A stretch of 64,000 nucleotides of DNA from a virus. The stretch's first letter is position 1; each line of letters opens with the position of its first letter. Positions 726-64,000 of this stretch are shown here, piece by piece. A program made the translations under genes and the position numbers. A model generated the notes under the pieces. That model ran no database searches. It saw only the letters and a program-made list of their open reading frames with translations, and was not told the DNA's origin. The stretch is from UHGV virus genome UHGV-1421865; one strand, 5' to 3'.

Positions 726-741
726 AATAAAACCGCGTAAT

Positions 742-1446: not shown

Positions 1447-1484
1447 TTTAATCAGTTATATTTTTTGAAACAAATAACTCAACA

Positions 1485-2115: not shown

Positions 2116-3624
2116 TTAGTCTTTATTAGGCGATACTACAAATCCAAAGCGGCTTATAATATCTCTATTGAGTAGCACCCGTGTAGACTTGTCTCTGTTG
2201 TCAACTAAGGCAAACTCTACATCCAATACTCTACGCGTTCCTATTTGGATAGACGGTATCTTAACAGTGATTCGTTTTTCTCGGTTTCTACTAATCTCAC
2301 CAGATTTCTCGAATGTATAATCTTCACCGTCGATTGTAACGACCACTTCAGTACCGTTCACTTTTAATTTATCATAACAAATTGTCGATATATCGTCACT
2401 ACCTGTACTTAGTTGTGCGTTTGTTGATAATACATTAGTATCCTCCAGAGTAGTAACATCTATATCACATAAGTACGGTACAGTTTTGGTTGTATATGCC
2501 AGTCCGCTTGCATCATTGATACTATCCAGCAATAACTTAAAGAAATTAAGCCCCATCGCTTCAGAAATACCTTCGGTACCAGGACTCATATTGTATTCTA
2601 ACACAACATTATCACCGATTTCCTTATTAGAACCTTTTACTAAGGGCATAATATCGACAGCGCACCAAGGCATACCGGATATTTTAGCGACTTTCTTAGC
2701 AATTTCCTCTTGTTCTTTTGTTAATACAACATGTTCTACTTTCGCTCCCAACGATACATTACTTCTGAAGTCACCTTTACCCAACATCACGCGTTTCATT
2801 GCACCGAGAATAATTTGACGACCGTGCAATGTAATTACATGTACTCTGATGTCACCACCGTCACCTTCTTCTTTTTTCTGAATAAGCAACTCTATTTCTG
2901 GATCCACATCGAATACCGCTTGTAATACCGGTAGGATATTCGTACCGTTCAACATAAATACACCGACACCACCATGACCACTTAATGTTTTTACAACATA
3001 TTCGAATTTTTCATCTTGCTTTTCATCTTCACCGACATTAGGATAAATCTCTACAAGTTTTTCATACAACGATTTCTTACCCTCCCTTATATCATCAGCT
3101 GTTAATAAAGCAAAACGAGGTTGAGGGATATTATACTTATCTAATAAAACACTAGAACTGTATTTATTTGACGCGATACGACCTTTGTCGATAGGGTTAA
3201 TAACATAAAAACCACGGTCTTGTAGTAGTTCTATTATATTAGCGCATTCTTCGTTAAATAACGTACTTAAACGTGCTATTACAATAGTATCGGTATTAGA
3301 CTTATCTGTTACAGTAAATTTATTATTCTCATCAAAAATAATGATATTACCATTACTAAGCTGTTTATACCTCACACTATTTGTCTTGAACATCTGTAAA
3401 ACAGTAGAGGTATTCTTTATAGCATCACACAAATTAGCTAGTGTTTTATCTTCTAAACAATCTGTTGACGCACCAAACAATAAAATGTTCTTAAAGAAAT
3501 AGTTGTCTTTAGATTTACCAAACGAGGTAACTTCATTCTCATCTTTAGCCTCGTGAATCTGCCTATCCTTTAAGTAACGTTTTTGAACTACATCTTGCAA
3601 TGATAAAATATAATTTGAGTTCAT
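2116..3624 (-). CDS. RimK-type ATP-grasp ligase (alpha-L-glutamate ligase-like) fused to a C-terminal DUF785 retropepsin-like domain.
   Basis: ATP-grasp motifs VVKTLSGHGGVGVF, IQKKEEGDGGDIRV and GDFRSNVSLGA (compare RimK DFRSN.H.GG). The C-terminal ~140 aa resemble the RimK-associated protease domain, with STGS at the position of the catalytic DTGA. Confidence 0.7.
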   Translation of the reverse strand: MNSNYILSLQDVVQKRYLKDRQIHEAKDENEVTSFGKSKDNYFFKNILLFGASTDCLEDKTLANLCDAIKNTSTVLQMFKTNSVRYKQLSNGNIIIFDENNKFTVTDKSNTDTIVIARLSTLFNEECANIIELLQDRGFYVINPIDKGRIASNKYSSSVLLDKYNIPQPRFALLTADDIREGKKSLYEKLVEIYPNVGEDEKQDEKFEYVVKTLSGHGGVGVFMLNGTNILPVLQAVFDVDPEIELLIQKKEEGDGGDIRVHVITLHGRQIILGAMKRVMLGKGDFRSNVSLGAKVEHVVLTKEQEEIAKKVAKISGMPWCAVDIMPLVKGSNKEIGDNVVLEYNMSPGTEGISEAMGLNFFKLLLDSINDASGLAYTTKTVPYLCDIDVTTLEDTNVLSTNAQLSTGSDDISTICYDKLKVNGTEVVVTIDGEDYTFEKSGEISRNREKRITVKIPSIQIGTRRVLDVEFALVDNRDKSTRVLLNRDIISRFGFVVSPNKD

Positions 3625-9639: not shown

Positions 9640-11110
9640 GATAGCGTCATTAAACATTGAATATCAAGGAGATAATAAGTAGATACAAAATGACCAAACA
9701 GTTGTATAGTTTAAGAAGAAAATAAAGAAAGATGTATTTAACTGAAAAGCATATTATCAAACGAACGCACCCATTCTACAATGAGTGTGATAAGTTATGT
9801 TTTCAGTCAAAAAACATCTACAATCAAGGACTGTACAATGTAAGACAACACTACTTTAATACAAAGAAATATCTAAATTATTATGGAAATTATCACTTAA
9901 CCAAAACTCAGGAATGTTATGATTACCTTCCAACGAGAGTATTTTGTCAAACGTTAAAGCATGTTGATATGGTTTTCAAATCATTTTTCGCATTGCTTAA
10001 AAACAAAACTGTAAAGAATAGCCTACCAAAATACCTTGACAAGGTGAATGGTCGCTATGTAGCAACATTTATAAAGCAAGCAATAGGTTTAGGACAGTTT
10101 AAGAAAACGGGTAAACTACACTTATCACAAACAGATGTATACATATCAACAAAACTAACAGATTTTAGTTCTTTGAAAGAAGTTCGTATTGTTCCAAGGA
10201 TACATCATTATGTTATTGAAGTCGTTTATCAAGTGAAAGAAAAGACGCATTGTGATAATGGAAAGTATGCTGCCATTGACCTTGGATTAAACAATTTGGC
10301 AACAGTAGCATTTAATGATGGCTCAAAACCACTCATTGTTAATGGTAGACCCATTAAATCCATCAACCAATACTACAACAAAAAGAAGGCTCAATACCAA
10401 TCAAGGCTTAAAGGAAACAAACGAAGAAGCCAAACTATATGTACATTAACTAATAAGCGTAATAACAAGGTGACTGATTACTTGCATAAGGCAAGCCGAT
10501 TGTTGGTGAATCAATTAGTTTCGCAAGGAATAACCACATTGGTTATTGGTAAAAACAAAAATATGAAACAAGACATCAACATTGGCAAAGTGAATAATCA
10601 GAATTTTGTTCAGCTTCCCATAATGCGTTTTGCTGATTTAATGAAATACAAGTGTGAACTTGAAGGCATTAAAGTTTTGTTCAATGAGGAAAGTTACACA
10701 TCGAAGTGTTCCTTTTTAGACGGTGAACCCATTTGTAAACATGACAAATATATGGGTAAGCGTGTAAAAAGAGGTTTGTTCGTTTCACAGAACGGTATTA
10801 AGATTAACGCTGATGTTAATGCTGCATATAATATACTGATAAAAGCAATCCCAAATGCTTTTGCAGACGGGATAGAGGGTGTTGTAGTTCACCCATTGGT
10901 ATTAACCATAAAGAAATAATATATTATTTCATACTATTTCACGCTTATATCAGTCGAACTACAAACCTTCGACACAGCATTTGATATGCTGAGCAAAAAA
11001 GATACAATAAAAACCTACAAAGTGAATGTCGCGAAAGACGACAACACCTTTATCGATGATTTCCATGACACTATACTAGATCTTGTCAAACCCTAACCAA
11101 CCTACACATC
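9640..11110 (+). mobile_element. Probable solo IS200/IS605-type (IS1341-like) element carrying tnpB; ends not defined.
   Basis: tnpB is flanked by about 95 bp upstream and about 260 bp downstream of non-coding DNA, which could hold the LE/RE and an omega-RNA. A small hairpin cagcatttgatatgctg lies at about 10973-10989. Boundaries are inferred only. Confidence 0.4.
9732..10919 (+). CDS. tnpB: IS200/IS605-family TnpB (OrfB) RNA-guided nuclease-like transposon protein.
   Basis: 395 aa. The C-terminus has a Zn-finger-like region (C..C..C spacing in KCSFLDGEPICKHDKYMGKRV) followed by ADVNAAYNILIKA, the hallmark TnpB RuvC-III motif. N-terminal region typical of OrfB. No tnpA nearby. Confidence 0.8.
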   Translation: MYLTEKHIIKRTHPFYNECDKLCFQSKNIYNQGLYNVRQHYFNTKKYLNYYGNYHLTKTQECYDYLPTRVFCQTLKHVDMVFKSFFALLKNKTVKNSLPKYLDKVNGRYVATFIKQAIGLGQFKKTGKLHLSQTDVYISTKLTDFSSLKEVRIVPRIHHYVIEVVYQVKEKTHCDNGKYAAIDLGLNNLATVAFNDGSKPLIVNGRPIKSINQYYNKKKAQYQSRLKGNKRRSQTICTLTNKRNNKVTDYLHKASRLLVNQLVSQGITTLVIGKNKNMKQDINIGKVNNQNFVQLPIMRFADLMKYKCELEGIKVLFNEESYTSKCSFLDGEPICKHDKYMGKRVKRGLFVSQNGIKINADVNAAYNILIKAIPNAFADGIEGVVVHPLVLTIKK

Positions 11111-18751: not shown

Positions 18752-19618
18752 TTAAATGTTGATAAACCTATTCGGTTCTGGTTTGTCTTCGACTGACGTA
18801 TCAACTGTGTTTGTAACACTATTCACGTCTGTATTAGTACTGTCGTTGACTGTAGTACTGTCGTTGACTACTGTAGTAGGGCTAACTGTTGACGTATCAA
18901 CTATGTTTGTACTGTCTGTATTAGAAATGCCCCCGACTATGTTGTTCACTGTATTAGTATCGTCTACTGCAGTGTTGTTTAGCGTTTTATTGTGTGTGAT
19001 AGTACTGTCACTGACTACTGTAGTAGGACTAACTGTTGGTATATCAACTGTGTCTACCGTCGAACTTTCATTGACTACATTAGTACTAGTATCATCTGTA
19101 TTGGATTTGACTGTAGTAGGTTGTACGTCAATGGTGTCATCAGGAGACTCTAACGACGCATCAGAACCGTTGATAAAGTCTGCCAGGGTCGATGTCATCA
19201 GTAGTGCAATGATAGGTAGTATCGCACCTACAATATAAGTGACAATAACAGTTGTCATTTTATCGGGTAGATTCGTCCATATAAAGATAGGATCTTTGAA
19301 GTATTGTAGGTCTGCAACACTATTTGTTACAATGTACTTATATGACGCAAAGATATTACCCATTACCTGGACTATCGTCAGTACTGTCATCAACACCCAC
19401 GGTACGACCTTCGATTGTTCTTTCTTCGTCGACAAGATACTGAACAGCACCACTGCCTGGCCGATTTCGAAAGCAATACCCAACAACACACTCATAATGG
19501 TCGTATTAGCAAGCCCAAAGAATGAGAACGAGTGGATAAGTGAAACGACTGCAACGATGACATACAAAAATGAAAACGAACCGATGTATAGATTACGTTT
19601 ATTAAGAAATTTTGTCAT
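18752..19618 (-). CDS. Polytopic membrane protein with a Ser/Thr/Val/Asp-rich low-complexity C-terminal tail.
   Basis: Four predicted TM segments, then repeated TVDT/TVVSDST-type sequence. Confidence 0.55.
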   Translation of the reverse strand: MTKFLNKRNLYIGSFSFLYVIVAVVSLIHSFSFFGLANTTIMSVLLGIAFEIGQAVVLFSILSTKKEQSKVVPWVLMTVLTIVQVMGNIFASYKYIVTNSVADLQYFKDPIFIWTNLPDKMTTVIVTYIVGAILPIIALLMTSTLADFINGSDASLESPDDTIDVQPTTVKSNTDDTSTNVVNESSTVDTVDIPTVSPTTVVSDSTITHNKTLNNTAVDDTNTVNNIVGGISNTDSTNIVDTSTVSPTTVVNDSTTVNDSTNTDVNSVTNTVDTSVEDKPEPNRFINI

Positions 19619-19640
19619 TTTTTTTTCTGAGTATGTTATA

Positions 19641-20174
19641 CTATTCTGAAAATTGAATACTATTCTTTGTCAAATATAATTTTACCGGATACCTATTGAT
19701 GTTGTTGGACACTGTCGCTCCGAAGACAGCTTCTAATGTCGCTTGAACATCTTCTGTGGTGTCAGAAACATCGAATCTATCGAAGTGAACGATGAATCGT
19801 AGATTCGACACCTTGAATGTATCCAATGTAAAGTCTTTAATACCTTTTACATCGTATCGCTCGTCGAAATTGATATTTATATGTGGCATCTGTTTGTTGA
19901 GATGTTCAAACTTGTCGTATTCGAAATAGGCATCAGTGATATTGTCCTTGTTGACACCGAAGAATTTGGGTGCCATTTTTACGCTCGTCGGCATCTGTTC
20001 CAGCAACCAACTGTCTAAATATGCCGCTACGTCTTGTTCTTGATACAGTGCCGGCGCCGATATAAAGACATCTTTGGGGTCTATCTCGTATGTTACGGTA
20101 ACATCGTTAAGACGAATAATGTCCTCTATACCTTCCGATAAATGCTCGGCAATGTATTTTTTAAGTTCTATCAT
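19641..20174 (-). CDS. Hypothetical protein, 177 aa.
   Basis: ORF with ATG start. Confidence 0.5.
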   Translation of the reverse strand: MIELKKYIAEHLSEGIEDIIRLNDVTVTYEIDPKDVFISAPALYQEQDVAAYLDSWLLEQMPTSVKMAPKFFGVNKDNITDAYFEYDKFEHLNKQMPHININFDERYDVKGIKDFTLDTFKVSNLRFIVHFDRFDVSDTTEDVQATLEAVFGATVSNNINRYPVKLYLTKNSIQFSE

Positions 20175-20266
20175 ATCTTTTGATGTACTTATATTGTCTG
20201 TTGTAGTGTTAGTATTATTTAAGCTTAATAACTACATCAACTGTACTTATATTGCCTGTTGTAGTG

Positions 20267-21388
20267 TCAGTCGTCTAAGAAGTCACTCAACAAGTCTTTC
20301 ATCTTACTGTCTGTAGATAGATAGTTCAAAATCTTCTTGATACGCGATGTGTACAACGATGTCGCAGCGATATTTTCTTTACCGTCTTCACGAGCGAAAT
20401 CACGCAGCTGTGCTTGTTTCTTGCCGTTCAGACCGTAAAATCGTTGGAATCTATCCAACTCTTGTTCACCGAACTTATTTTCAATAGCCTTGTACATCTC
20501 GGAGAATATCGATTTCATTTCACGAGCCGAAAGTGTACTGTCTGCCTGTGCCGACGGATCTGCCATACGAGTGAACAGGGAATCGACTGCATCTTCTGAC
20601 TTTGACAATGTCGCATCGCCGTCGATAGTGTTTTGTTTTACATATTTACCGTCATTGGCAGCCCTTTCTTTCTGTACTTCACCGTACGTCTTACGAATCA
20701 TATCACCTTCGCGTTTCATACCGTCTCTGATAGCATTTCTGATCATCCACGAAGCATAACCGACAAAACTCGTTGCGGCAATCTTCTCGTCGTCAGCCAT
20801 CGTCTTGTTCGGCTTACCATACTTGTTGAGTGCCCATGTGAAACCTTCCTGTGCGAAACCGAAGAGGTCGTCTTTGCTGAGGCTCGTCTTACCGACATAG
20901 CTGTTCGCGATACTGTGCATCAATGGTAAGTATTTGGTTACCAAGTGATTGCGTCCGAGTTCGGATTCGAAGTCATAAACAACAAAATCGACGGGTTTCT
21001 TTTTAGCCATGATACTGTCGAATTCTTGCCGTGTTTGGAATACCGGTACTTCTTTTACAGAGTACGAAACTGCAAGGTTATCGAGGGCCTTATACAGTTT
21101 TGCCAACGGAACGACCTTTGTTTGTCCGGCTTGGTAGAAGCTGTACAGCTTATTAGGACCTTCAAAATCGCTGAGGGGTTCCAGTTCCGGATTGTTGATA
21201 AGCCATTCTATAACAAACACACCGTCGTCGGAAAGATACTTACCGGCTACACTAAAATACCGTTGTAATTCGGCAGGTTCGAGTGTATTCATCGCACCGG
21301 GCTGGAGTTTAATGTTGCCGTTTTTAGCTTCATTCACACCAGATGATTGTGCTTCGAAATTGGACATAAAAGTTTTAAGAGATCTCAT
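20267..21388 (-). CDS. Sigma-70 family / gp55-like sigma factor with an N-terminal extension.
   Basis: Region-2-like NHLVTKYLPLMHSIANSYVG...DLFGFAQEGFTWALNKY...FVGYASWMIRNAIRDGM (compare DLIQEGNIGLMKAVEKF / FSTYATWWIRQAI). Region-4-like helix-turn-helix near the C-terminus (LRDFAREDGKENIAATSLYTSRIKKIL). Confidence 0.55.
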   Translation of the reverse strand: MRSLKTFMSNFEAQSSGVNEAKNGNIKLQPGAMNTLEPAELQRYFSVAGKYLSDDGVFVIEWLINNPELEPLSDFEGPNKLYSFYQAGQTKVVPLAKLYKALDNLAVSYSVKEVPVFQTRQEFDSIMAKKKPVDFVVYDFESELGRNHLVTKYLPLMHSIANSYVGKTSLSKDDLFGFAQEGFTWALNKYGKPNKTMADDEKIAATSFVGYASWMIRNAIRDGMKREGDMIRKTYGEVQKERAANDGKYVKQNTIDGDATLSKSEDAVDSLFTRMADPSAQADSTLSAREMKSIFSEMYKAIENKFGEQELDRFQRFYGLNGKKQAQLRDFAREDGKENIAATSLYTSRIKKILNYLSTDSKMKDLLSDFLDD

Positions 21389-21418
21389 ATATGTTATTTT
21401 ATGTTTTCTTTTTATATA

Positions 21419-21470
21419 AAAATCAAACTAGGTTTGATTTCACATTTGAGTTTTACTCAAATCAAAAATC
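21419..21470 (-). terminator. Tandem hairpins downstream of the 21576 gene.
   Basis: aaatcaaactaggtttgattt and atttgagttttactcaaat, followed by a T-rich run on the minus strand. Confidence 0.4.
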
Positions 21471-21575
21471 CAGCCGGTACAAATTATGACCACACTACAT
21501 TATTAAAAAAACTAACATAGTGTGGACGGTATATTATGGCTAATAATACTTTAAGTGGTCTGTCGGGTGAACAAA

Positions 21576-22091
21576 TTAGGAATTAACCTGTCCGGGAGTA
21601 GAAAGTTGTTCCATTCGTTGCATTACAGCTTGGTGTTTGTGTGCAACGTGGTAAACTTCTTCTGTGACACGGGTGTATTCGTCACGTGTTTGTTCGAAAT
21701 AGTCGTTGATGTCGACAATCGCTTGCCATTCCTCGTGGCCGGTGAACTGGAGTTGTCCGAGGACGCGAAGCGTTGTGTCCAAAATAGGATATGCCAGTTT
21801 ATCGTGGAACTTCTTGGTGTCCCAGAACTTATAAAGTTCAAGAAATGATTTAGTCGTCTGCCAAGGGCTCACTTGTTTGTCGAGGAACATACAAATCTTG
21901 GCATACACATTTTCGTAGCCCTTTGTTTTCTTCATCTTAAACTGATGACCTGCGACACGGGTGTTTACTTCGTCGATCTCTACAATTACTGCAGCTTCCA
22001 CCTCTTGAAGTTCTGTGAGGGATTTACCTTCGAGGCTCTTTTCGAACGCTTCGAAGTCTTGAAGCATCTGTTCTTTTTGTTTAGTACTCAT
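21576..22091 (-). CDS. Hypothetical protein.
   Basis: ATG at 22091 (MSTKQKEQ..). The track start at 22115 is a GTG. Confidence 0.5.
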   Translation of the reverse strand: MSTKQKEQMLQDFEAFEKSLEGKSLTELQEVEAAVIVEIDEVNTRVAGHQFKMKKTKGYENVYAKICMFLDKQVSPWQTTKSFLELYKFWDTKKFHDKLAYPILDTTLRVLGQLQFTGHEEWQAIVDINDYFEQTRDEYTRVTEEVYHVAHKHQAVMQRMEQLSTPGQVNS

Positions 22092-22206
22092 ATTTTGATA
22101 TATTTGATTTGTCACTGTTATAATATAGACAGTACCGTCAAGTGTATGTTTTTTAAGAGGTCAAAGCTGTACCTCAATTAGTTCTACACATGTTGGTGTG
22201 TGCTGA

Positions 22207-22713
22207 CTATAAATATATAGTCCATACCGCACCGAAAATCAGCCCGTACAGTAAAAAATGTAGTAAAAAGTATTTCAGGTTCTTGGCGTACGCTTGTCGT
22301 GACGCAATGTCGAAAACGACGAGGAAGTTATCGTGATCCACAGGCCCGACATGGTCGATGTCGCAAGTAAGGTACGTGTATAGATTCTCCATTTGAAACA
22401 GCTGTGCGATGATAGCAAGTTGTTTATATAAGAAATACTTTACTTGTTCTTCATTGTTCGTCCGCTGGTCGTCGAGTTCTATGATCGCGCTCGATATGTC
22501 TATTTTACCGTTTGTTATAATCGGGTTGATAACACCGTATATTCGTCCAATCCAGTCGGTATGAAATTCTGTTTTAAGGTACTTATACAACAGCTCTTTG
22601 AACTTGTCTGTGTATAGTATAGGTTTTACAATAGCTAATTCTCGTTTGTACGTGAAATAGGACGTTATCAGTACATACAAGTTATATAGTATAGATATTC
22701 GCTTTAGATTCAT
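22207..22713 (-). CDS. Hypothetical protein with a C-terminal hydrophobic segment.
   Basis: ORF with ATG start. Confidence 0.45.
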   Translation of the reverse strand: MNLKRISILYNLYVLITSYFTYKRELAIVKPILYTDKFKELLYKYLKTEFHTDWIGRIYGVINPIITNGKIDISSAIIELDDQRTNNEEQVKYFLYKQLAIIAQLFQMENLYTYLTCDIDHVGPVDHDNFLVVFDIASRQAYAKNLKYFLLHFLLYGLIFGAVWTIYL

Positions 22714-24401: not shown

Positions 24402-25142
24402 ATGGCTATACGAATTACATCCAAGACGAAATCAGCAACATTTCGACCTACTTCGAAACTAGAACTAATCAATTATGTACGACAAGAAATAAACAAGCAA
24501 GGTCCGGATGCTGATTTGAACTTTATCGATACTTCTGAGATCACAGATATGTCTAAATTGTTCGCGGAACAAAAGATTGGAAACATCAAAATTGATTACT
24601 GGGACGTATCGAATGTGACGAACATGAGTAACATGTTTTATAACTGTAAACGATTCAATGCAGACCTGTCTCGGTGGGATGTCGGCAACGTGACCAATAT
24701 GACAGCTATGTTTTCGAATTGTTATAAATTCAATGCTGATTTATCTCATTGGGACGTCAGTAACGTTACCAATATGTCGGCTATGTTTAGTGGGTGTGAG
24801 GTTTTTGAAGGTACTGGATTAGATCGTTGGAATACGTCGAATGTCACTAGTACACGATATATGTTCTATAGTTGTAAACAACTCGATACCGATTTGTCTC
24901 GTTGGGACGTCAGCAATGTGACCGATATGGAGGGTATGTTCGGAAATTGTTATAAATTAAATTGTGACCTGTCTCGTTGGGACGTCTCTAATGTATGGAA
25001 CATGTTCTGTATGTTCGTCGAGTGTAAGGAATTTGATTCTGACTTACGAGGGTGGAACGTCTCTAATGTTACAAATAATAAAAATTTTGCCAGCGGGTGT
25101 TCAAAATCATTTCTTAATAAGTTACCGAAGTTTAACGACTAG
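24402..25142 (+). CDS. DUF285/BspA-like repeat protein, paralog 5, on the plus strand about 22 kb from the main array.
   Basis: MAIRITSKTKSATFRPTSKLELINYVRQEINKQGPDADLNFIDTSEITDMS leader, then seven WDVSNVTNM..MF..C..F repeats. Confidence 0.8.
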   Translation: MAIRITSKTKSATFRPTSKLELINYVRQEINKQGPDADLNFIDTSEITDMSKLFAEQKIGNIKIDYWDVSNVTNMSNMFYNCKRFNADLSRWDVGNVTNMTAMFSNCYKFNADLSHWDVSNVTNMSAMFSGCEVFEGTGLDRWNTSNVTSTRYMFYSCKQLDTDLSRWDVSNVTDMEGMFGNCYKLNCDLSRWDVSNVWNMFCMFVECKEFDSDLRGWNVSNVTNNKNFASGCSKSFLNKLPKFND

Positions 25143-27412: not shown

Positions 27413-29146
27413 ATGAACCAAACACCTTACTTGAGTGTTGTAATTCCAGTATACAATGAAGCAACGACAGTTGTCGATACACTAAATTCTATTCTACAGC
27501 AAGACTTCAACGGACCGTACGAGATTATATTGATCAATGATGGTTCTTCAGACAATACGTTGGACACTATAAAAGAATATGCTTACAAGTATAGTACAGA
27601 TGCTGTCGAGATTGTTATAACAAGTAATGATACTAATTTAGGCATCTCAGACAGTCTAAACAAAGGTATCGCGATGAGTAAGTCTGACATCATTGTTCGC
27701 ATCGACGCTGACAATAAAATGTTACCTGGACGACTACAACATCAATACGATACTCTACAGAGAGAACAAGAATTAGGTGTACTTGCAAGTTCGGGTATAT
27801 GTGTACAAGGTCCGGACAAAGAGTATCGTATACAATTCGGAAACGAATACCTAAGTCTTCATACATTCTCCGGCGATACAAATTACGTCGTTCACCCCGC
27901 TGTCGCATTCCGAAAGTCGATACTGATAGACAAGCTGGGACACAGACTGTACGAGTCGTATTTCAACAATGCCGAAGACATGTGGCTATGGGTGCGGTGT
28001 TTGGAACAAGGTATAAACATCCGGCATGACTCTAAAATGGTCACCGAATACCCTATGTGCAGTAGCATTTGTGATAATACATGGGTCTTGTCGCGACGAA
28101 TCGGTAAATTCTGTCGTCGTATGTTAGATGTCGAGGCGGAAGACAGTCCACAGTTGACTATTATAGTACCGTTCAAGAACGAAGGCGACGAAATTGCTTA
28201 TACTCTGCGAAATATACTAGCGACTGCCACGGCACGACCTGAGATTCTACTTATCAACGACGGTTCTGATGACAACTACAATTACAGTGCTGTAGCAAAC
28301 AAATACAGTTGTCGTTATATACACAACGAAACGTCACTGGGTGTCGGTGAAGCACGCATGCAAGGTGCACGGTGTACCCGTACCGAATTTATGATGATCA
28401 TCGACGGTCACATGCGATTCTACGACGACGGTTGGGACGAGAAAGTGATCAACATAATCCGTGAAAATAATCTATATAACGACATGCTCTGTTCACAGAC
28501 GTTAACATTATGGCGAACAGAGTCGGAAGAGTACTCAGGTTTATATAAGATAGACAACGAAGTCGGCACTAAAAGAAACAGTACGAACGGTACGGTGATT
28601 AAATTCGGAGACAGGCCGTTCGAATCACCTTGGACGTACAAAACTATTGAGGATGCTAATGTAATAGAAGGGCTTGTGAAAATACCTTGTATAATGGGTG
28701 CGTGCTATATCTGTTCAACTGAGTTTTATAATAGAATATCCGGAACGGAACATTTGGTCAATTGGGGGTGTGACGAACCGTTATTATCGATAAAAACATA
28801 CCTTGCGGGCGGGGGTTGTTATCTTATCCCGGACTTACATGTCGGACACATCTATCGCGACCGGGCACCGTATATAATACTAAACAAAACCTTGTATACT
28901 AACACGTTGTTCATGGTGTACTTATTCTGTCATTTCGACACAGAACTTAAAGAACTGTATCTCAATAAGTTACGTGAAAAGACAAGTGACGAACTATGGG
29001 CTGCTATGCACGAGAATATGGACGAAAAGGAATGGGATTTTTATATAACGAACTATTATAATCGGAACCCCCAGTGCATTTCCATTAGAGACTTCTTTAA
29101 GATGAACGATTATGCCCTACCAGACGACGGTACCAATTATGTTTAA
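27413..29146 (+). CDS. Bifunctional glycosyltransferase with two tandem family-2 (GT-A) domains.
   Basis: Domain 1: LSVVIPVYNEATTV..LINDGSSDNT..RIDADN. Domain 2: LTIIVPFKNEGDEI..LINDGSDDN..IIDGH. Confidence 0.8.
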   Translation: MNQTPYLSVVIPVYNEATTVVDTLNSILQQDFNGPYEIILINDGSSDNTLDTIKEYAYKYSTDAVEIVITSNDTNLGISDSLNKGIAMSKSDIIVRIDADNKMLPGRLQHQYDTLQREQELGVLASSGICVQGPDKEYRIQFGNEYLSLHTFSGDTNYVVHPAVAFRKSILIDKLGHRLYESYFNNAEDMWLWVRCLEQGINIRHDSKMVTEYPMCSSICDNTWVLSRRIGKFCRRMLDVEAEDSPQLTIIVPFKNEGDEIAYTLRNILATATARPEILLINDGSDDNYNYSAVANKYSCRYIHNETSLGVGEARMQGARCTRTEFMMIIDGHMRFYDDGWDEKVINIIRENNLYNDMLCSQTLTLWRTESEEYSGLYKIDNEVGTKRNSTNGTVIKFGDRPFESPWTYKTIEDANVIEGLVKIPCIMGACYICSTEFYNRISGTEHLVNWGCDEPLLSIKTYLAGGGCYLIPDLHVGHIYRDRAPYIILNKTLYTNTLFMVYLFCHFDTELKELYLNKLREKTSDELWAAMHENMDEKEWDFYITNYYNRNPQCISIRDFFKMNDYALPDDGTNYV

Positions 29147-32591: not shown

Positions 32592-34466
32592 CTACAGACC
32601 TGTGTCATTGCTGTCTGGAGCATCATCTGCCGGGACACTATCAGTCTCAGGTTGGACATCGCCTTGCATTTCGTCGTCTATTTCGTCCGAACTGTCGCTG
32701 GCACCTGCTTCCGGTTCCGGACCGTCGTCTTCAGGCTCGTCTCCTTCGTCGTCCATACCGAATCCACTGTCGTCATCGTCACCACCGAATCCACTGTCAT
32801 CTTCCGACTCGTCGTCCTCTTCATTATTGGTGGCAGTTTTGTCTTTGAATGACTTATTAAGTGCCAAATCGGACTCACTCATCTTCAGATATTTTGTAAT
32901 AAGGAACTCTAAATCGAAATAAGGATTCTCGTTTCCTTCGTCGTCCATTACAGATAGACTGTCTTTCAGATTCGTTATAAATTCGAGGCGCTTTGTCATA
33001 ATCTCTATGTTCATCATCTCTTCGAACATATTATATGAATTAAACCGAAGACCGACGCTACCGATAAGACGATAGTTGTTATTTAGTTTAGGAATACTTA
33101 ACGACAGTTGAATACGCAGCGGTTTCAGTAAGACCTCTGCAAAGACACCCCGAACTCTATTGACGAAACGAGAAAAGTCGATTTCTTCGCGCAGGGCCTG
33201 TGTCGCATCGGTACCGAACCATGTCGCTTGCGCATCGGTACTAAAACGACTGGCTGGAATCTGTGATGCTCTATATAGCTTATTTAAGAAATAATTAAGC
33301 TGATCATTATCGGACAATGTCGGTCCCGAGTCGGTTAAGGTTTCTATCCGGGGTGTGCCGTTCTCATTTTCCGGCATCCAGTATTCTTTGTTGAACGGTA
33401 GATTAACACGGCCGTTTATTTTCAATTCACCGGTTTCGTTATTAAAAGAAATATCTTCTTTATACCGGTTCATCGCTTCGGCTAATGTCTGCCGACCTTT
33501 GGCACGGTTCATACCGCCGACCGGAATAGTAAACATAGTCTTAAACGACGACTGTGTTACCGTCCAAATGATCTGCGCTTGCTCTACAATACGATATATA
33601 TTAAAAGGACGTATCAATCTTTCTAGATACGACTGACGTTGGTTAACACCGGAGTCTTCAAATTTAATATATATCACCTGTGAGTCCAACATTTTACGCT
33701 CATGGCTATGGGTGTCTTTGTACTGTACCCAGTAGGTAACACCGCCATCAACAACGCGAGTCAGTGTACAAGGATCGAGTTCGATTATAGCCTTTACAAA
33801 TTTAGGATGTTGTAGGTCATCGTAGACAATTTCAAAGGCCAGTACACCGTCGATAAGGAATCGTTTGTACTGGTACCATGCCCGTTGTTTCCATTGTAGC
33901 AAATTGTACAGTCGAATGAACTCGTTCTGTAACGTCGTGTTGATTTGTTCTATATATTCCTCTTCGAGATTCTGAATGATAGCATTATCTAAGAAAGGTT
34001 GACAAATGTACAAATCGTTTTCGTCGCCGACAATACTCTCGTTGGCCATTTTGTCGATGATGTCTTCTAATTCGGTATACAACGACATCTGACGTAAGAA
34101 ATCACGACGTTGTGTTAATGTCTTTTCAGAAAACGACCGTTCTTCCTCTGGTTTTATCTTCCAGTTACTAATAGAAGAATATATCGACATCGTATTCTCA
34201 GGCAATAAATCCTTCTGGAGAATAGGGTCTGCAGGTACTGCCTGCATGTTCTTGTATATATCGTCGTCGTAGTTCATCCCATAGTGGGACAACGACTTCA
34301 GGATTTTAGACAGTCCTTTGGGTTTCTTCGGTCTTGTATATTGCTGTGAGAATCCGTTACTGTTACTAAAGTTGTTCTTTATATTTGGATTACCAAAGCT
34401 CTCGTTTATAATGTTGTATATATTAGAACTGTCTTCGAAAACTGAGGACATGTCTGTAAATCTCAT
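32592..34466 (-). CDS. Portal vertex protein (T4 gp20-like).
   Basis: Collinear similarity to gp20 blocks: MNRAKGRQTLAEAMNRYKEDISFNNETGEL; EYWMP..TPRIETLTDSGP; LNYFLNKLYRASQIPASRF. Acidic C-terminal tail. Transcribed divergently from the terminase. Confidence 0.7.
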   Translation of the reverse strand: MRFTDMSSVFEDSSNIYNIINESFGNPNIKNNFSNSNGFSQQYTRPKKPKGLSKILKSLSHYGMNYDDDIYKNMQAVPADPILQKDLLPENTMSIYSSISNWKIKPEEERSFSEKTLTQRRDFLRQMSLYTELEDIIDKMANESIVGDENDLYICQPFLDNAIIQNLEEEYIEQINTTLQNEFIRLYNLLQWKQRAWYQYKRFLIDGVLAFEIVYDDLQHPKFVKAIIELDPCTLTRVVDGGVTYWVQYKDTHSHERKMLDSQVIYIKFEDSGVNQRQSYLERLIRPFNIYRIVEQAQIIWTVTQSSFKTMFTIPVGGMNRAKGRQTLAEAMNRYKEDISFNNETGELKINGRVNLPFNKEYWMPENENGTPRIETLTDSGPTLSDNDQLNYFLNKLYRASQIPASRFSTDAQATWFGTDATQALREEIDFSRFVNRVRGVFAEVLLKPLRIQLSLSIPKLNNNYRLIGSVGLRFNSYNMFEEMMNIEIMTKRLEFITNLKDSLSVMDDEGNENPYFDLEFLITKYLKMSESDLALNKSFKDKTATNNEEDDESEDDSGFGGDDDDSGFGMDDEGDEPEDDGPEPEAGASDSSDEIDDEMQGDVQPETDSVPADDAPDSNDTGL

Positions 34467-57617: not shown

Positions 57618-58559
57618 TTAGAGTAGATGTTCCAGTTCTTTGTTTGTGTATCCATGATTTTCTCCGAACAGTTTTATAACAAATGCGTTATTATACTGTG
57701 CCATCTCATCAAAGCCACTATCGAGACTAGTCTTTCCGTCCATAACACCGCTAATATCGACCAGGGCGCGTTCGTACATCGCTTTAATGACATCTTTGTC
57801 GTTGATGTCATTCAGCGTTTCTGCAATGGCCTTGACAGTACCCAGTCGACTTTTCGGTCTGTCGCCATTGACAATAGAATTTCTCTGTGCACTATAATTT
57901 ACTTCGACGCTATTGATAATAACAATCTTACGGGCTCGCATCAACCACTGTGGTATCGTCCGAACATCTTCAAACTCACGTTCTCTACTATACGGATAAC
58001 TCAGTACTATTTTTCGTGTATAGATTTTGTTCCATACATTGAATTTGATAGCATTCTCCTTATATAGCGAAATAAGTGCTTGTTTCGGGTTGTTTTCAAT
58101 ACCGAACGACTCTTTTACAACACTGTTCTTTAGTCTACCGCTCAAATCACGAACTCGAACGCCGTATTCGACAATATCAGCGTTGTTTTCTAGTATTGTG
58201 ATTACAGCCGCATGGACGAAATCGGCGTTGATATAGTAGTCGTCTGCATCTAAAAACATAAAGTAGTCACCGGTACCGGCGTCGATACCGACAGCACGAG
58301 CATATCCACAACCCATATTTTCCGACAGCTCTATACTTTTATATGCGATATGGGAATTATCCGGACGTTCCGAAATCAGCCGTTCTGCAACTGTCATCGA
58401 CGAATCGGTACTACCGTCGTTAACCAGGATAAATTCAATGTTGACGTCGTCTGTTCGCTGCTTTAGAATAGACTGAACTGCACGACCTATGGTTGTCTCG
58501 GCATTGTATACCGTCATTATAATAGACACTTTATGTCTTTGTACGTCCTGTTCGTTCAT
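57618..58559 (-). CDS. Family-2 glycosyltransferase.
   Basis: VSIIMTVYNAETTI..LVNDGSTDSS..FLDADD. Confidence 0.75.
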   Translation of the reverse strand: MNEQDVQRHKVSIIMTVYNAETTIGRAVQSILKQRTDDVNIEFILVNDGSTDSSMTVAERLISERPDNSHIAYKSIELSENMGCGYARAVGIDAGTGDYFMFLDADDYYINADFVHAAVITILENNADIVEYGVRVRDLSGRLKNSVVKESFGIENNPKQALISLYKENAIKFNVWNKIYTRKIVLSYPYSREREFEDVRTIPQWLMRARKIVIINSVEVNYSAQRNSIVNGDRPKSRLGTVKAIAETLNDINDKDVIKAMYERALVDISGVMDGKTSLDSGFDEMAQYNNAFVIKLFGENHGYTNKELEHLL

Positions 58560-59157
58560 ATTGTGGGTAGTTAAAGATTAAAATAGTAGTGTCGTCGATG
58601 CGATTTAGTACCGGGAATGTTAACGTAGACTTTGTAGATGCCTTCTTAACAGTGCCTTTGCCAGTAACGATAACAAAATCACCGGGTTGGACGCTACTGT
58701 CATCACAAAGTACGTAGCATTTACCTAAGATATTCACTTGTCGCCATTCCTGCCGTGTGCTACGAGGCATATATATGGCACTGTCATCGTAATCTGGGTG
58801 TTTAATAGGTGTGTATTCAACATCCTTTACGGTTGTCATAATCGTCATTTCCAGTACCGGGTCGTAGACTTTCTGACCGCGCAAGATGTCTTTTCGTTCC
58901 ATATACGGGTCCCCCATACCGTTTGCACACCATTTCAACGGGTGTTCTTCTGGGTCGTCGGAGACATATTCCCCGTTCATCGCTGTGAACCCTAAGAAGA
59001 AACCACCGGTATACGGTTCTATCTTACCGGGTTCTGTCTTCGACAGCTGTACCGGTGTACCGTAAGGGAGCGACCCTGTCAGATCGCTCCTTATCTCGTA
59101 CATCTCACAGACACCGAATTTATGAACAAAATCCTGATAGTCTATAATGTTTTTCAT
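58531..59157 (-). CDS. Hypothetical protein, 208 aa.
   Basis: ORF with ATG start; its 3' end overlaps the GT2 start by 29 nt. Confidence 0.5.
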   Translation of the reverse strand: MKNIIDYQDFVHKFGVCEMYEIRSDLTGSLPYGTPVQLSKTEPGKIEPYTGGFFLGFTAMNGEYVSDDPEEHPLKWCANGMGDPYMERKDILRGQKVYDPVLEMTIMTTVKDVEYTPIKHPDYDDSAIYMPRSTRQEWRQVNILGKCYVLCDDSSVQPGDFVIVTGKGTVKKASTKSTLTFPVLNRIDDTTILIFNYPQYERTGRTKT

Positions 59158-59582: not shown

Positions 59583-60815
59583 TTAAAAAAGTTCTAGTTG
59601 TACAGCCTCTCCGACTTCACAATCCGGTAGCTGCATTGTTGTCATAAAACGATTAAGCGGAATAATCACCGTCTTGTCCCATTGAATTGTTCTGTTCGGT
59701 ACCGGTGCCCATTCCGGCAACTCACCCTGTGGGAATGCAAAATACTGTCCTTTGTCGAATTCGTAGTATTTAATCTTCCCGGATGTCGTCTTCAGGAACT
59801 TCTGGTTGTTTTTGTACGCCAGATGGTTATAGCGAGCGATACCATGAACACTAACGGGACAACGTTTTTCGAGTAACAACATCTCTTCGTCGTCTATAAC
59901 ATATTTCTTATAGTTACCGATACCGACGCTCGACGAAATATCCTGTACCGGTGCCGTCATGAACTCGTCGCGGTACTTTAACAGTTTCTTGTTAAATTCG
60001 GTTAAGAAAGTACTTTTATCGCTCACATTATAGTCGAACATCAACATCTTCACCATATCGGTAAGGATTTTACGCGACAGCTGTGGCGTCGTCGACTTGA
60101 TGATTTCGATACCGGTACCCGATACCTTCGGACTGTCCAAGAATTTACCTTTATTAAAGACGAGACCTTTGATGTATTTCTTCTTCTTTAGATAAATACA
60201 CGACTTGGAAATTGTCTCAAGCTCAAATTCATGGATGCTAGTTGCATGACGAGGTTTGTAAATCGCCTCGCACCATTCGTTATTCAGCTTATTCTGGAAT
60301 TCTGTATTATAACGAAGAATCCATTCTGTCTTTGCTCTGTCGGACTTGTACAGTTCTTTGTATTCCGGTGTCATACACTCGAAGAACGTACCGTAGCTGA
60401 CATATACCGAATCGGTATCGGAGAACACTGCGACCTGTTGTTGTCGATACCAGTCGTGTTTAGACTCGTCCAGAGCGAAATTAAATTGTTCCCATAGGTC
60501 GTACCGTGTCCAGATGGTCTCATGGAACCACTCTTGCATATTGTGCCACATCGTTTGTGTTAGATGCCGACACTCACCGGTAATGTCACCTGCCAATTCT
60601 ACGTTATAAAAATAGAATCCTGGATTTCCACTCGCACCGTATGCCCCGTTACCGGCCAATTTCTTAGACAATTCGAACATGGTATAGTCGTGACGGAGGT
60701 CTTCGACCTTGTCCCGTAGTTCTGTTAGCTCTTCCAACGACATATTTGCCATCGCCTCTGGTGATGTCTTCAATACGTCAGAAATAATTGTCTTGATGTC
60801 GGGAGAAAATTCCAT
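59583..60815 (-). CDS. DNA polymerase family B, C-terminal half only (T4 gp43 '43B'-like: palm motifs B and C plus thumb).
   Basis: KKLAGNGAYGASGN (motif B, K..G.YG), VAVFSDTDSVYVS (motif C, DTDS), LKKKKYIKG (KKRY). Collinear with the gp43 C-terminus through to the last residues. No exonuclease domain or motif A (D..SLYPS) is present. Confidence 0.8.
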   Translation of the reverse strand: MEFSPDIKTIISDVLKTSPEAMANMSLEELTELRDKVEDLRHDYTMFELSKKLAGNGAYGASGNPGFYFYNVELAGDITGECRHLTQTMWHNMQEWFHETIWTRYDLWEQFNFALDESKHDWYRQQQVAVFSDTDSVYVSYGTFFECMTPEYKELYKSDRAKTEWILRYNTEFQNKLNNEWCEAIYKPRHATSIHEFELETISKSCIYLKKKKYIKGLVFNKGKFLDSPKVSGTGIEIIKSTTPQLSRKILTDMVKMLMFDYNVSDKSTFLTEFNKKLLKYRDEFMTAPVQDISSSVGIGNYKKYVIDDEEMLLLEKRCPVSVHGIARYNHLAYKNNQKFLKTTSGKIKYYEFDKGQYFAFPQGELPEWAPVPNRTIQWDKTVIIPLNRFMTTMQLPDCEVGEAVQLELF

Positions 60816-60887
60816 TTTAGATATGTAGTAGTATTCTATATTATTTAGTGTTTAACACCAGAGCCTATAGAAAGATTCTACAGAATA

Positions 60888-61226
60888 TCACATAAGACCC
60901 AGTGTGTTCGGTACCTTACCGTTCGTTACCGGCGTCGGCATACTGTTAATCACAGCCACCTGTGCGACCGGACTGCCTGCTGTCATGATAGTACCGTAGA
61001 TCTGCGCGTTTTTAACGTAATAGTCGATTGCATTTGCAATACTAGACGCCAGCGGCTGTGATACAAGTTCGTCAAAGGTATCTGCAAAGCGTTGTGCTTT
61101 CTCTTCTGCGAGTTTAGATTTACCGAATTGACAATAGTCTTGTAATACACAGTGCCGGATAGCGTCTTTAAGGTATTTGCTAAATGCAGCTTTTAATTGC
61201 GATTCTAGCGCACTTGCATTTAACAT
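60888..61226 (-). CDS. Hypothetical protein.
   Basis: ORF with ATG start. Confidence 0.45.
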   Translation of the reverse strand: MLNASALESQLKAAFSKYLKDAIRHCVLQDYCQFGKSKLAEEKAQRFADTFDELVSQPLASSIANAIDYYVKNAQIYGTIMTAGSPVAQVAVINSMPTPVTNGKVPNTLGLM

Positions 61227-61253
61227 GTTGAATATCAGATATTTATTAACTCG

Positions 61254-61703
61254 TTACTGAGCCATTACAAAGTCACAAAATTGACGAAGGTATTCGTAGT
61301 CTGCTTTGTCTACAGTACCTTTGGTATCATAAAGATACTTGATGATCCAATGTCCGTACTTAGAAGGGGTCAGTACAGGTGAGCTGCAGTCACACTTAGC
61401 GTACGTGTTGTTGTCACAAGTCTTCAGTCGAGCGAGGACATCAATGTTATTTTTGAGGATCTTATCGAAACTATCTTGTGACGACTTGTCGTCCTCAGGC
61501 TGGTCTTTTTCTTGACTGATACCGTCATCGTCAGCATCGTCGTTGCAACCGAACACCTCTGTAAGCAATGCGACAAGTGCATTTTGAAGTGCTTCAAATT
61601 CTTGTTTCACTTCTTTATGTTCATTTACATTGTCCTTTTGTTGTTCTTGTTTGGACTGTTCTTGGTCGCTTTGAAGTAAATTAAAAAGTTCGTCGAGTGT
61701 CAT
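61254..61703 (-). CDS. Hypothetical acidic protein with a Cys-rich C-terminal region.
   Basis: ORF with ATG start. Confidence 0.5.
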   Translation of the reverse strand: MTLDELFNLLQSDQEQSKQEQQKDNVNEHKEVKQEFEALQNALVALLTEVFGCNDDADDDGISQEKDQPEDDKSSQDSFDKILKNNIDVLARLKTCDNNTYAKCDCSSPVLTPSKYGHWIIKYLYDTKGTVDKADYEYLRQFCDFVMAQ

Positions 61704-61708
61704 AATTT

Positions 61709-61963
61709 TTACTGATTTAGTTTATAAAAGAAATTAAGTTTATAGTTGTTGTTTTCGTCGCGGTTTCGTTCCGTCATAGAACGATCGGCTTCGTTGATTT
61801 GTTCTTCTGTCCACGGCCCGTCTCCGTTTGCGTCGTAGAACTTGCCGTCTCTGTATTGAAACGTCGCTTCGTAGTCAGGTTCCCAGTTACCCGGTGAGTC
61901 TATCTTCATCAACGTCCAAAATCCAGGTGTCTTTATATCTCGAAGAAGTTTTGCTACTGTCAT
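61709..61963 (-). CDS. Hypothetical small protein.
   Basis: ATG at 61963 (MTVAKLLRDIK..). The longer track ORF has no clean start. Confidence 0.4.
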   Translation of the reverse strand: MTVAKLLRDIKTPGFWTLMKIDSPGNWEPDYEATFQYRDGKFYDANGDGPWTEEQINEADRSMTERNRDENNNYKLNFFYKLNQ

Positions 61964-62019
61964 ATTTTTTATATAAACTAGTGAACTACTTAAGAGTTTT
62001 ACTACTGTATTACTATTTG

Positions 62020-62211
62020 TTAAATAAAAGTACCCAAGATACCGAATACAACACACAACAAAGTAATAGCGATAGCGATGATAATTACACTTGATATGCT
62101 GTTAATAAGTAGACTAATACCTTGCCATAGGAGTCCGAACACAAAACCGGATACTTTGAAGAATACCCCGATGCCTACAACAAATAATAGGATGAAAAGT
62201 AGAACTGACAT
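62020..62211 (-). CDS. Small two-TM membrane protein.
   Basis: Sixty-three residues, almost entirely hydrophobic; ATG start. Confidence 0.35.
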   Translation of the reverse strand: MSVLLFILLFVVGIGVFFKVSGFVFGLLWQGISLLINSISSVIIIAIAITLLCVVFGILGTFI

Positions 62212-62246
62212 ATTAAATAGTCTCTTTTATTTGTATTCGGTTATTA

Positions 62247-62483
62247 TCAACAGTCATCACCAGACCAGTATTGTGGTCCGAAGTAGCTGTTTACACTACG
62301 ATCCATAATTGCCTCTGTTTCTTCGGGGTTGAACATGTTATAATGTTCTGCAGCACCCGGCTCGTCCATGTGTTTAAGATAATTGTACGTGTCGTGAACA
62401 GTCCATTGTTCGTATTCGTCGCACGTATCGATGATAGGCTTGAAGTATTCAATGTCGCTGAGAAGAGAACTGAGATTAATCAT
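62247..62483 (-). CDS. Hypothetical small protein.
   Basis: ORF with ATG start. Confidence 0.4.
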   Translation of the reverse strand: MINLSSLLSDIEYFKPIIDTCDEYEQWTVHDTYNYLKHMDEPGAAEHYNMFNPEETEAIMDRSVNSYFGPQYWSGDDC

Positions 62484-62571
62484 GACTGTAGCACTTTAAC
62501 TGTTTGACTTGTTTGTTATATATGTAATATAGCGTACTTTGTGAGCAAAATCAATACAACCACATAGAAAG

Positions 62572-62835
62572 TTAGTCCTTGAAGAGCATTAGTTTGTCGG
62601 ACAATACTTCCGTCTTGTATTTTATATCACTGTGTTCGATGACAGTAGCCGCGTCTATACTACAAGTTTCTAAGTCAGTAGCCTGCTCCTCTGTTATAGG
62701 TACAGTAGTGTATTCCGGTTGCTCACTGTCTGTACGCTGACACAAATACAGCCGGTTGTCTTTCGAAGACCGACAATAGAACTCTATCGGTTCGTCGTAG
62801 AAACATAAAATCTTAATCTTACCTAACTGCTCCAT
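62572..62835 (-). CDS. Hypothetical small protein.
   Basis: ORF with ATG start. Confidence 0.4.
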   Translation of the reverse strand: MEQLGKIKILCFYDEPIEFYCRSSKDNRLYLCQRTDSEQPEYTTVPITEEQATDLETCSIDAATVIEHSDIKYKTEVLSDKLMLFKD

Positions 62836-63103: not shown

Positions 63104-64000
63104 TCAAAGTTTATAGCGTTTATTGACAGTTATTGATATAATATAGTGTTCTAGTTCTTTTAAGAGCGCCGGACGAATATCGAAAGCCAGTGTCTTGCTG
63201 TAGCTCTCTTCTAAACCGTTGTCCTTAAACATATAGTCCATTACGAGAGGTATAGTAATGTCCTTGTTGGAATCTATCGTGCTATATTGGTATTTATCGT
63301 ATTTGTTACATTGAAGCGACTCGACATCTTTCAATTCAAGATAAAGTACCGCACCGAACATCTTAGATTGGAATTCAGTACCCGGTCTACTGTTCTTCGC
63401 CGGATTCTTGATCTTATCCGAAGACGTGACCGGAATATCCACATAACGATAAATATCGGATATTGTATTATATACAAATGTATCTAAAAAGTCCCCGTCG
63501 TCGTACGTTAGGTTGTCTAAGTTATTTATCACATCGACGTTTTCCGAAGCTGTATTGTTTTTATCTAATACATTGTCGTTTTTAAGTACCAATTTATCGT
63601 CTTCTTTCACTAACGACAGTACTTTATTAGTCGCTACATTTATAATACCGTCACTGACATAACTTAAGATGCTGTTTTTATCGCCTATTCTGTACCGATA
63701 CGGCAACGACAGCTGTTGTTTGCTTTCAAGTATCCTATCTTGTGTGGCAATATCGTACCTTAGTCTATCTTTCTTCTCCAACGTCATATTTTTGCGATAC
63801 ACAGCCAAGTCTTTCATTCGTTGCTGCGGACTGTCGTAATAATAAGATTGATGGGTGTACGGATCCGTTGTTCTAAAATAGATAAATTGTCCCAACGTTT
63901 GTGCACGTGCTGTTTTAGTATCGTCTTTTATATGAAACGGTGTTCTTTCGTAGTCGCCTATCTTGTATTCGTAATAGTCTGCGTTTGTACACAGTAACGG
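63104..64000 (-). CDS. Hypothetical protein whose 5' end lies beyond the window end.
   Basis: The reading frame stays open through 64000 upstream of the TTG-annotated track start at 63895. Translation ...PLLCTNADYYEYKIGDYERTPFHIKDD.. continues with no stop. Confidence 0.5.
   Translation of the reverse strand, partial: PLLCTNADYYEYKIGDYERTPFHIKDDTKTARAQTLGQFIYFRTTDPYTHQSYYYDSPQQRMKDLAVYRKNMTLEKKDRLRYDIATQDRILESKQQLSLPYRYRIGDKNSILSYVSDGIINVATNKVLSLVKEDDKLVLKNDNVLDKNNTASENVDVINNLDNLTYDDGDFLDTFVYNTISDIYRYVDIPVTSSDKIKNPAKNSRPGTEFQSKMFGAVLYLELKDVESLQCNKYDKYQYSTIDSNKDITIPLVMDYMFKDNGLEESYSKTLAFDIRPALLKELEHYIISITVNKRYKL

Follow-up and report, generated by a model that had tools for sequence, protein, structure and literature searches.

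A DNA polymerase divided between two genes, 43A and 43B, is known from the Aeromonas phages 44RR and 25 and from the 133/31/65 group (Petrov et al. 2006, 2010; summarised in PMC2988022 and PMC3061061). The 43A and 43B proteins of phage 25 co-purify and are active as a polymerase (PMC2988022). Across the natural splits of family B polymerase (PolB) in phages, the two genes lie 2 bp to 3 kb apart, the T4-like cistrons stay adjacent, and the fingers domain has been termed a hotspot for insertion elements (PMC3061061). In the chimallivirus PhiKZ, DNAP-N (gp82) and DNAP-C (gp50) assemble stably in a 1:1 ratio, and motifs A and C are on separate chains (PMC13648687). Beyond phages, the PolB of Methanothermobacter (Mth) is a natural two-gene enzyme with subunit genes 85 kb apart, and a Pfu polymerase engineered to be split at the fingertip has wild-type kinetics, with a C-fragment that folds only with the N-fragment (PMC3061061). 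That the family B fingertip tolerates a break and attracts mobile elements was already known. Here, we describe a gene in a 64,000-nucleotide (nt) stretch of the virus genome UHGV-1421865; by "the window" we mean this whole stretch. An uninterrupted open reading frame (ORF) on its minus strand, at positions 59583–60815 with an ATG start and a TAA stop, encodes 410 amino acids (aa). The product is very probably the C-terminal subunit of a two-subunit, gp43A/gp43B-type family B replicative polymerase whose subunit genes are dispersed in the genome.

Identity of the reading frame and position of the split

The protein matches the Pfam family PF00136 (DNA_pol_B; E = 6.7e-08, 32.2 bits against a gathering cut-off of 23), and its residues 15–346 align with residues 526–827 of RB69 gp43 (phmmer, E = 6e-06). 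Overall, the ORF covers approximately residues 508–890 of RB69 gp43, comprising the second finger helix with motif B, the palm motif C, the KKKKY motif, and the thumb. Residues K52, N56, Y59, G60, D133, T134, D135, and K211–Y214 are invariant across 35 stand-alone C-terminal halves (C-halves). An AlphaFold2 (AF2) model of the ORF, built with 35 homologues, had a mean predicted local distance difference test score (pLDDT) of 84.4, and its best matches in the PDB were all RB69 gp43 (Foldseek probability 1.00; query-normalised template modelling score, or TM-score, 0.53–0.60), with the palm and thumb fold recovered. The sole poorly predicted internal segment was residues 55–78 (window 60582–60653; pLDDT 41–51), in the motif B stretch. 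In the intact enzyme this segment packs against parts of the N-terminal half (N-half), and the low confidence of the model would be consistent with dependence on a partner. No exonuclease domain, N-terminal domain, or motif A was found in the ORF, so it is not a complete family B enzyme in one polypeptide. The first-pass annotation of this DNA, made from the sequence alone, had proposed just this: a 43B-like C-terminal half and nothing more, lacking the whole N-terminal/exonuclease domain and motif A. The motif B, FSDTDSVYV, and KKKKY positions that it gave all proved correct.

The same protein has been deposited before. Its third-party annotation (TPA) copies in GenBank (DAR80979.1 and DAO55375.1) are labelled "MAG TPA: DNA polymerase [Caudoviricetes sp.]". 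Variants with at least 90% identity to the ORF number 46 sequences, found in independent assemblies on contigs that reach 228 kb, and the ORF is full-length (410 aa) in all 15 variants among the matches listed. Judging from these variants, the C-half gene is maintained.

To place the break, the ORF can be compared with unsplit relatives of 926–928 aa, which are single ORFs from IMG/VR and JGI metagenomes. Residue 1 of the ORF aligns with residue 513 or 514 of these proteins, and the two remain collinear to the C-terminus at 55–57% identity. Mapped through the alignment of one unsplit relative (L008) with RB69 gp43, the junction lies between N507 and L508, within the fingers domain, which spans residues 469–572 of RB69. 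By this mapping, the break falls in the fingertip loop after the first long finger helix, and the two finger helices are divided, the first belonging to the N-half and the second to the C-half. Unsplit proteins read ...EIDNILKHNNEH and continue directly with ITFHQDIIDL..., whereas in split relatives the N-half ends in ...EIDKLIAEKKNEKTNK and a stop codon and the C-half begins MEFSQDIIDL.... The window protein begins MEFSPDIKTI..., and M1, F3, and I7 are conserved in the 35 stand-alone C-halves. In phage 44RR, 43A (498 aa) aligns with RB69 residues 4–511, and residue 6 of 43B corresponds to RB69 residue 519, which puts the start of 43B at about residue 514. The break in the window is thus within about 5 residues of the 44RR 43A/43B break, in the same fingertip loop, and the 43A/43B-type reading of the first-pass annotation stands.

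Arrangement of the two halves in relatives

The C-half has 466 homologues, and nearly all of the best 120, which we inspected, are stand-alone proteins of 408–425 aa with a conserved MxFSxDI start. Stand-alone N-halves occur in the hundreds. They are 506–535 aa long (mostly 509–518), carry PF03104, the FDIET exonuclease motif, and motif A (DFASLYPSQ), and stop at the junction with ...EIDxLIKEK (or ...EIDxLIxEK, then the stop codon). The clade members are mostly jumbo phages and megaphages of the rumen and gut.

We took a census of 95 non-duplicate loci of the clade, at 50% identity or more. A single fused ORF was present at 34 loci, and at six more a single ORF carries a further interruption of approximately 1.77 kb in its C-terminal part. 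Two adjacent cistrons, 14–15 nt apart, were seen twice (one of them L115). At nine loci, the N-half and the C-half are separated by an insert of 1.0–1.1 kb (one gene) or 2.9 kb (two genes). The C-half lies directly upstream of the N-half at two loci, while 31 have only an N-half (about a dozen of these with 6–10 kb of flank on both sides) and 11 have only a C-half. At all nine insert-type loci the inserted gene is of one family, DUF7487, matching PHROG 3339 and PHROG 12131, both labelled "homing endonuclease"; one member additionally matches an HNH endonuclease PHROG. In one relative, both halves are very probably on the same 245,817-bp contig, neither within 10 kb of the other. Since such wide separation is common in the clade, the large separation predicted here is not special to this phage.

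In a neighbour-joining (NJ) tree of the C-halves, split and fused forms are intermixed, and the window protein sits on a long branch near dispersed and permuted forms. Because of this intermixing, the tree, which is only indicative, suggests repeated split or dispersal events.

Several relatives show forms worth recording in their own right. At the two loci with permuted order (L124:1398-4171 and L125:1-2693), the C-half is followed by the N-half after a gap of 17–20 nt. At L115:2620-2720, the halves are in frame and parted by a single TAG (...KTNK, stop, IKIFNMEFSQ...), the sole TAG stop on that 7-kb contig. This codon may have arisen by a recent nonsense mutation, or it may be read through or recoded. 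A further variant (L019:6287-10840 and L020:6287-10840; P0149, P0156, and P0175, with 135 member sequences in P0156) has an ORF of 775–780 aa in which the N-half and the opening ~134 residues of the C-half are joined to an intein-like start (PF14890). Behind it come a free-standing ORF of 417–438 aa (PHROG 22677) and then an ORF of 325 aa, which has a non-polymerase start and continues with the remainder of the polymerase. From its sequence, this variant looks like an intein disrupted by an inserted gene, and it may be a naturally split intein at another site, close to motif C.

A proposed two-subunit polymerase with dispersed genes

In the reading that we favour, an ancestral single gene of ~926 codons would have been cut in the fingertip loop, probably when it was invaded by a free-standing homing endonuclease gene of the kind that relatives still carry at the site. 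Later genome rearrangements would have moved the two cistrons apart. The C-half would be translated from its own start codon and associate non-covalently with a separately encoded N-half of ~510 aa. The N-half would supply the N-terminal domain, the 3'-5' exonuclease, motif A, and the first finger helix, and the C-half finger helix 2 with motif B, the C-terminal palm with motif C, the KKKKY motif, and the thumb, the two together rebuilding one active site. The relatives and the enzymology of split polymerases point to an N-half elsewhere in this phage's genome, and the precedents of phage 25, Pfu, and PhiKZ suggest that the two predicted proteins would form an active complex without splicing.

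A separate N-half gene in the same genome is seen in relatives, and we looked for one in the source genome. A protein identical to the ORF is encoded on ena:ERZ772909:NODE_12_length_187286, where the record position equals 70,436 plus the window position; sibling assemblies are from human oral metagenomes (PRJEB6997). Because the variants of at least 90% identity sit on contigs of up to 228 kb, this is a jumbo phage genome of roughly 205–228 kb. The stretch examined spans record positions 51,729–158,340, or 106.6 kb in total (the window plus 42.6 kb of walked flank). Its six-frame translations were searched with N-half profiles (alignments A2 and A3) with filters off. In the same search, a C-half profile recovered the ORF at E = 2e-213. 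As the N-half profiles matched nothing in the 106.6 kb, the distance from the C-half to the partner gene should be at least 27.1 kb on the upstream side or at least 78.3 kb on the downstream side. The first-pass annotation had placed 43A at least 3.2 kb away or outside the window and had called for a profile search beyond it; the search extends that distance to at least 27 kb. We predict that the N-half is in the remaining 80.6 kb of the contig or in the 20–40 kb of genome beyond it.

Several negative results weigh against this prediction and are best considered together. Besides the profile search of 106.6 kb of the 187-kb contig, no N-half was recovered from the window by tblastn with PAU gp105 and the N-halves of relatives, or by Pfam searches of all window ORFs of at least 250 aa and ten mid-size ORFs. 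Two N-half homologue searches, with the best 120 matches inspected in each, gave no cluster on the contigs of this phage. In many relatives with separated halves, 2–4 kb separate the N-half from the portal gene, and a conserved gene of 272 aa follows ~5 kb downstream. In this phage, 43 kb lie between the portal gene (32592–34466) and the 272-aa gene (at ~77.1–77.9 kb in window coordinates), and no N-half was found near either. Other searches were also negative. Pfam and PDB searches of large uncharacterised proteins near the gene (1093, 400, 632, and 942+ aa) revealed no N-half, and the members listed for the five largest N-half clusters included none from this phage. Scans of IMG/VR, JGI metagenomes, and GTDB did not find the N-half of this phage, which is either absent from those collections or was missed by the search patterns.

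One candidate partner was considered and rejected. This was a GC-rich N-half (L199, JAEIGA010051382.1) that belongs to a different phage. Amino-acid composition was also tried and does not discriminate between phages. The L199 N-half is a stand-alone form on a contig of 48% GC, compared with 25–31% in other clade members and 39% in the window, so the clade spans hosts of very different base composition.

Alternative explanations

The failure to find an N-half invites the possibility that it has been lost. The C-half would then be a relic or have been given a new role, being either non-functional or without a canonical exonuclease/motif-A partner, and some other polymerase would replicate the genome. 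We consider this unlikely. It would account for the lack of an N-half in the 106.6 kb and in both neighbourhoods used by relatives, but the stretch examined is about half of the ~205–228-kb genome, and in the clade N-halves and C-halves are equally common as stand-alone proteins. The residues of motif B, motif C, and KKKKY are all intact and do not vary within the family, and every one of the 15 listed strain variants encodes the full-length protein. The 106.6 kb revealed no second DNA polymerase, and it is the N-half that carries motif A, with one of the enzyme's two catalytic aspartates. We find it likewise improbable that this oral jumbo phage has no canonical N-half at all and that its C-half uses a non-homologous partner or borrows exonuclease and motif-A functions; if true, this would be a new polymerase architecture. 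In a milder version of this improbable reading, the halves would belong to different transcription modules, and assembly of the polymerase would be timed by two expression programmes.

Two further explanations concern the junction itself, and we give almost no credence to either. The halves could be joined post-translationally by a split intein, of the type found in the PolB of Nanoarchaeum equitans or as an MIJ3-like intein with an HNH endonuclease. Phage MIJ3 is a published precedent (PMC6892783). Within this same polymerase family, PF14890 inteins are present (P0079, P0113, P0116, and the 775-aa proteins), and the intein-like insertion in L019 and L020 is itself interrupted by an ORF. These inteins, however, are at a different site, at about residue 134 of the C-half. 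The 410-aa ORF has no PF14890 match and no intein C-fragment ahead of the polymerase sequence, and it aligns with unsplit polymerases from its first residue; the intein boundary that the first-pass annotation had suggested looking for behind MEFSPDIKT is therefore absent. Stand-alone N-halves, for their part, stop within a few residues of the junction without an intein N-fragment of ~100 aa. As no extra residues flank the junction on either side, we regard a split intein as excluded. The split could otherwise be an artefact, a continuous gene being hidden by misassembly, by a sequencing error or frameshift, or by recoding of a stop codon. Stop-codon recoding is known in gut megaphages, and the halves at L115 are in frame with a single TAG between them. 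Upstream of the start in the window, however, there is a 72-nt spacer followed by unrelated genes, with no N-half sequence; an in-frame N-half directly upstream, which would have overturned the first-pass reading, was not found. The same gene order recurs in 8 contigs from independent assemblies, and the long ORFs of the window end in TAA, TAG, and TGA 27, 8, and 6 times, so that all three standard stops are in use. A polymerase assembled without splicing from two separately encoded subunits is, in our view, the account that best joins the split site, the intact motifs, and the arrangements in relatives.

Genomic neighbourhood

The features of the gene and of the DNA upstream of it are collected in Table 1.

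Table 1. Features of the C-half gene and of the adjoining upstream region, in window coordinates
Feature	Position	Strand	Basis or remark
Family B DNA polymerase C-terminal half gene, gp43B analogue	59583..60815	-	ORF, PF00136, RB69 alignment, collinearity with unsplit relatives, AF2 model
KKKKY motif, residues 210–214, KKRY-type, primer-terminus binding	60174..60188	-	Family alignment, RB69 alignment
Motif C (FSDTDSVYV), residues 131–139, catalytic aspartates D133 and D135	60399..60425	-	Family alignment
Motif B (SKKLAGNGAYGASGN), residues 50–64	60624..60668	-	Family alignment; K560–G568 of RB69 aligned
Split junction, N-terminal residues MEFSPDIKT	60789..60815	-	M1 = I513 of unsplit L008, ~L508 of RB69
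Intergenic spacer, 72 nt, with stop codons and without polymerase coding potential	60816..60887	.	Sequence read
Six small genes, function unassigned, at the place of the N-half or homing endonuclease in relatives	60888..62835	-	Gene calls
3' end of a 1093-aa gene, PHROG 29329 (unknown function), running past the window end; not polymerase	63104..64000	-	Gene calls, PHROG

The six small genes upstream have no Pfam or PHROG matches and no similarity to the DUF7487 homing-endonuclease-like gene. The first-pass annotation had counted seven small ORFs here, none of them polymerase-like. The lack of polymerase similarity holds (Pfam, PHROGs), but the seventh, at 63104–63895, belongs to the 1093-aa gene. 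The first-pass annotation had also asked whether the intervening ORFs are mobile; those in the window showed no mobile-gene similarity (Pfam, PHROGs), although relatives do carry the homing-endonuclease-like gene at this site. No homologue of that endonuclease was found in the 90 kb of this phage searched for one. A scan for promoters and terminators around the C-half gene gave results at chance level, and megablast of the region against GenBank phages returned no matches.

Gene order in the wider region differs from that in relatives. The T4-like structural genes include the portal, the large terminase, and gp2 in the window, with a gp21-like protease and gp23 just outside. In L119, homologues of window genes 18752–22713 stand a few kb upstream of a unit formed by the N-half, the homing-endonuclease-like gene, and the C-half. 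A Dam-type methyltransferase gene directly precedes the C-half in L011 and L012 and is 7.3 kb upstream of it here. From these comparisons of gene order, the region has clearly been rearranged. The minus-strand genes at 18752–22713 form a module of five, one of them encoding a sigma-70 region 2 protein (20267–21388); the module is syntenic with the region preceding the polymerase genes in L119 and L004, and in the window it instead meets a convergent 1519-aa gene with a PKD domain. Beyond the window end (L002:85-2808, ~68.0–70.7 kb on the window scale), genes for a serine hydroxymethyltransferase, a Fer4_12 radical-SAM-activase-like protein, and the Dam-type N6-adenine methyltransferase stand in a row upstream of the C-half. 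This row may relate to nucleotide or DNA modification.

Other genes in and around the window were noted in passing. Two genes downstream of the polymerase half, the coding sequence (58531–59157, minus strand) for a protein of 208 aa with an autoproteolytic Peptidase_G2 (IMC) domain overlaps a family 2 glycosyltransferase gene (57618–58559, minus strand) by 29 nt; a second glycosyltransferase gene of this family, encoding 577 aa, is at 27413–29146. A TnpB/IS605 OrfB-type gene (9732–10919, plus strand; PF01385 and PF07282, 395 aa) sits in a plus-strand block at 8.9–18.2 kb that breaks the synteny seen in relatives. Paralogues with DUF285 leucine-rich repeats (PF03382), resembling repeats in PAU gp103, comprise three tandem genes at 252–2042 (minus strand) and one at 24402–25142 (plus strand), and five more are found in a run of ~ten same-strand genes just left of the window (L208:10001-17535). 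A RimK-like ATP-grasp protein of 502 aa (2116–3624, minus strand) adjoins baseplate-like genes. Directly downstream of a 1601-aa gene, and approximately 22 kb upstream of the C-half, is a gene (L213:15636-16088) whose 150-aa product has an N-terminal endonuclease domain like that of Tn7 TnsA.

Implications and comparison with known split polymerases

A family B polymerase split at the fingertip is of an already known kind. The locus adds a jumbo phage of the human mouth in which the two genes, one of them predicted, would be at least 27 kb apart. With fused, adjacent, endonuclease-inserted, permuted, and dispersed forms in one family, the clade offers a convenient natural series in which to follow the passage of an essential enzyme from one gene to two. 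In practice, annotation pipelines call such ORFs "DNA polymerase" or "hypothetical", and checks of completeness or of the replication module that expect one polB would consequently misread such phages.

Among known systems, the PhiKZ enzyme resembles the one proposed here in being a family B polymerase from two separate genes, and DNAP-N/DNAP-C is the best structural precedent for the working of an enzyme of this kind. Its split, however, is within the palm-insertion domain, with both finger helices in DNAP-C, its subunits are larger (638 and 731 aa), and it comes from another phage lineage. We rejected a PhiKZ-type split for the window gene, where the finger helices fall on different halves. 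The Pfu and Mth polymerases differ in being archaeal; the Mth split is at a separate site on the RB69 map (PMC3061061), and that of Pfu is artificial. The closest cultured phage in the collection searched is the Sphingomonas jumbo phage PAU (27% identity, E = 2e-24). Its polymerase has the break at the same place, giving gp105 (487 aa) and gp110 (404 aa), both encoded on the same strand and both labelled as DNA polymerase in the PAU record. In PAU, however, the halves are only 2.4 kb apart, with 4 genes between them, including one for a dUTPase.

The likeness to 44RR and phage 25 extends to the cut in the fingertip loop (~511/514 in 44RR and ~507/508 in this phage, in RB69 numbering), to subunit sizes (498 and 391 aa in 44RR, about 512 and 410 aa in this clade), and to the association of free-standing homing endonuclease genes, and no intein, with the site. 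A homing endonuclease probably caused the original split in the clade described here. The endonuclease families differ, being DUF7487 in the relatives of this phage and seg-like in phage 25, and identity to T4-type gp43 is only ~20–25%. The spacer is 49 nt in 44RR, whereas the predicted partner is at least 27 kb away here. The first-pass annotation had regarded this separation as larger than in known T4-type splits. Against the published range of 2 bp to 3 kb it is, but within its own clade it is not unusual. The splits in the 44RR/25 group and in this clade are very likely independent events, in distant lineages, at nearly the same point of the fingertip loop.

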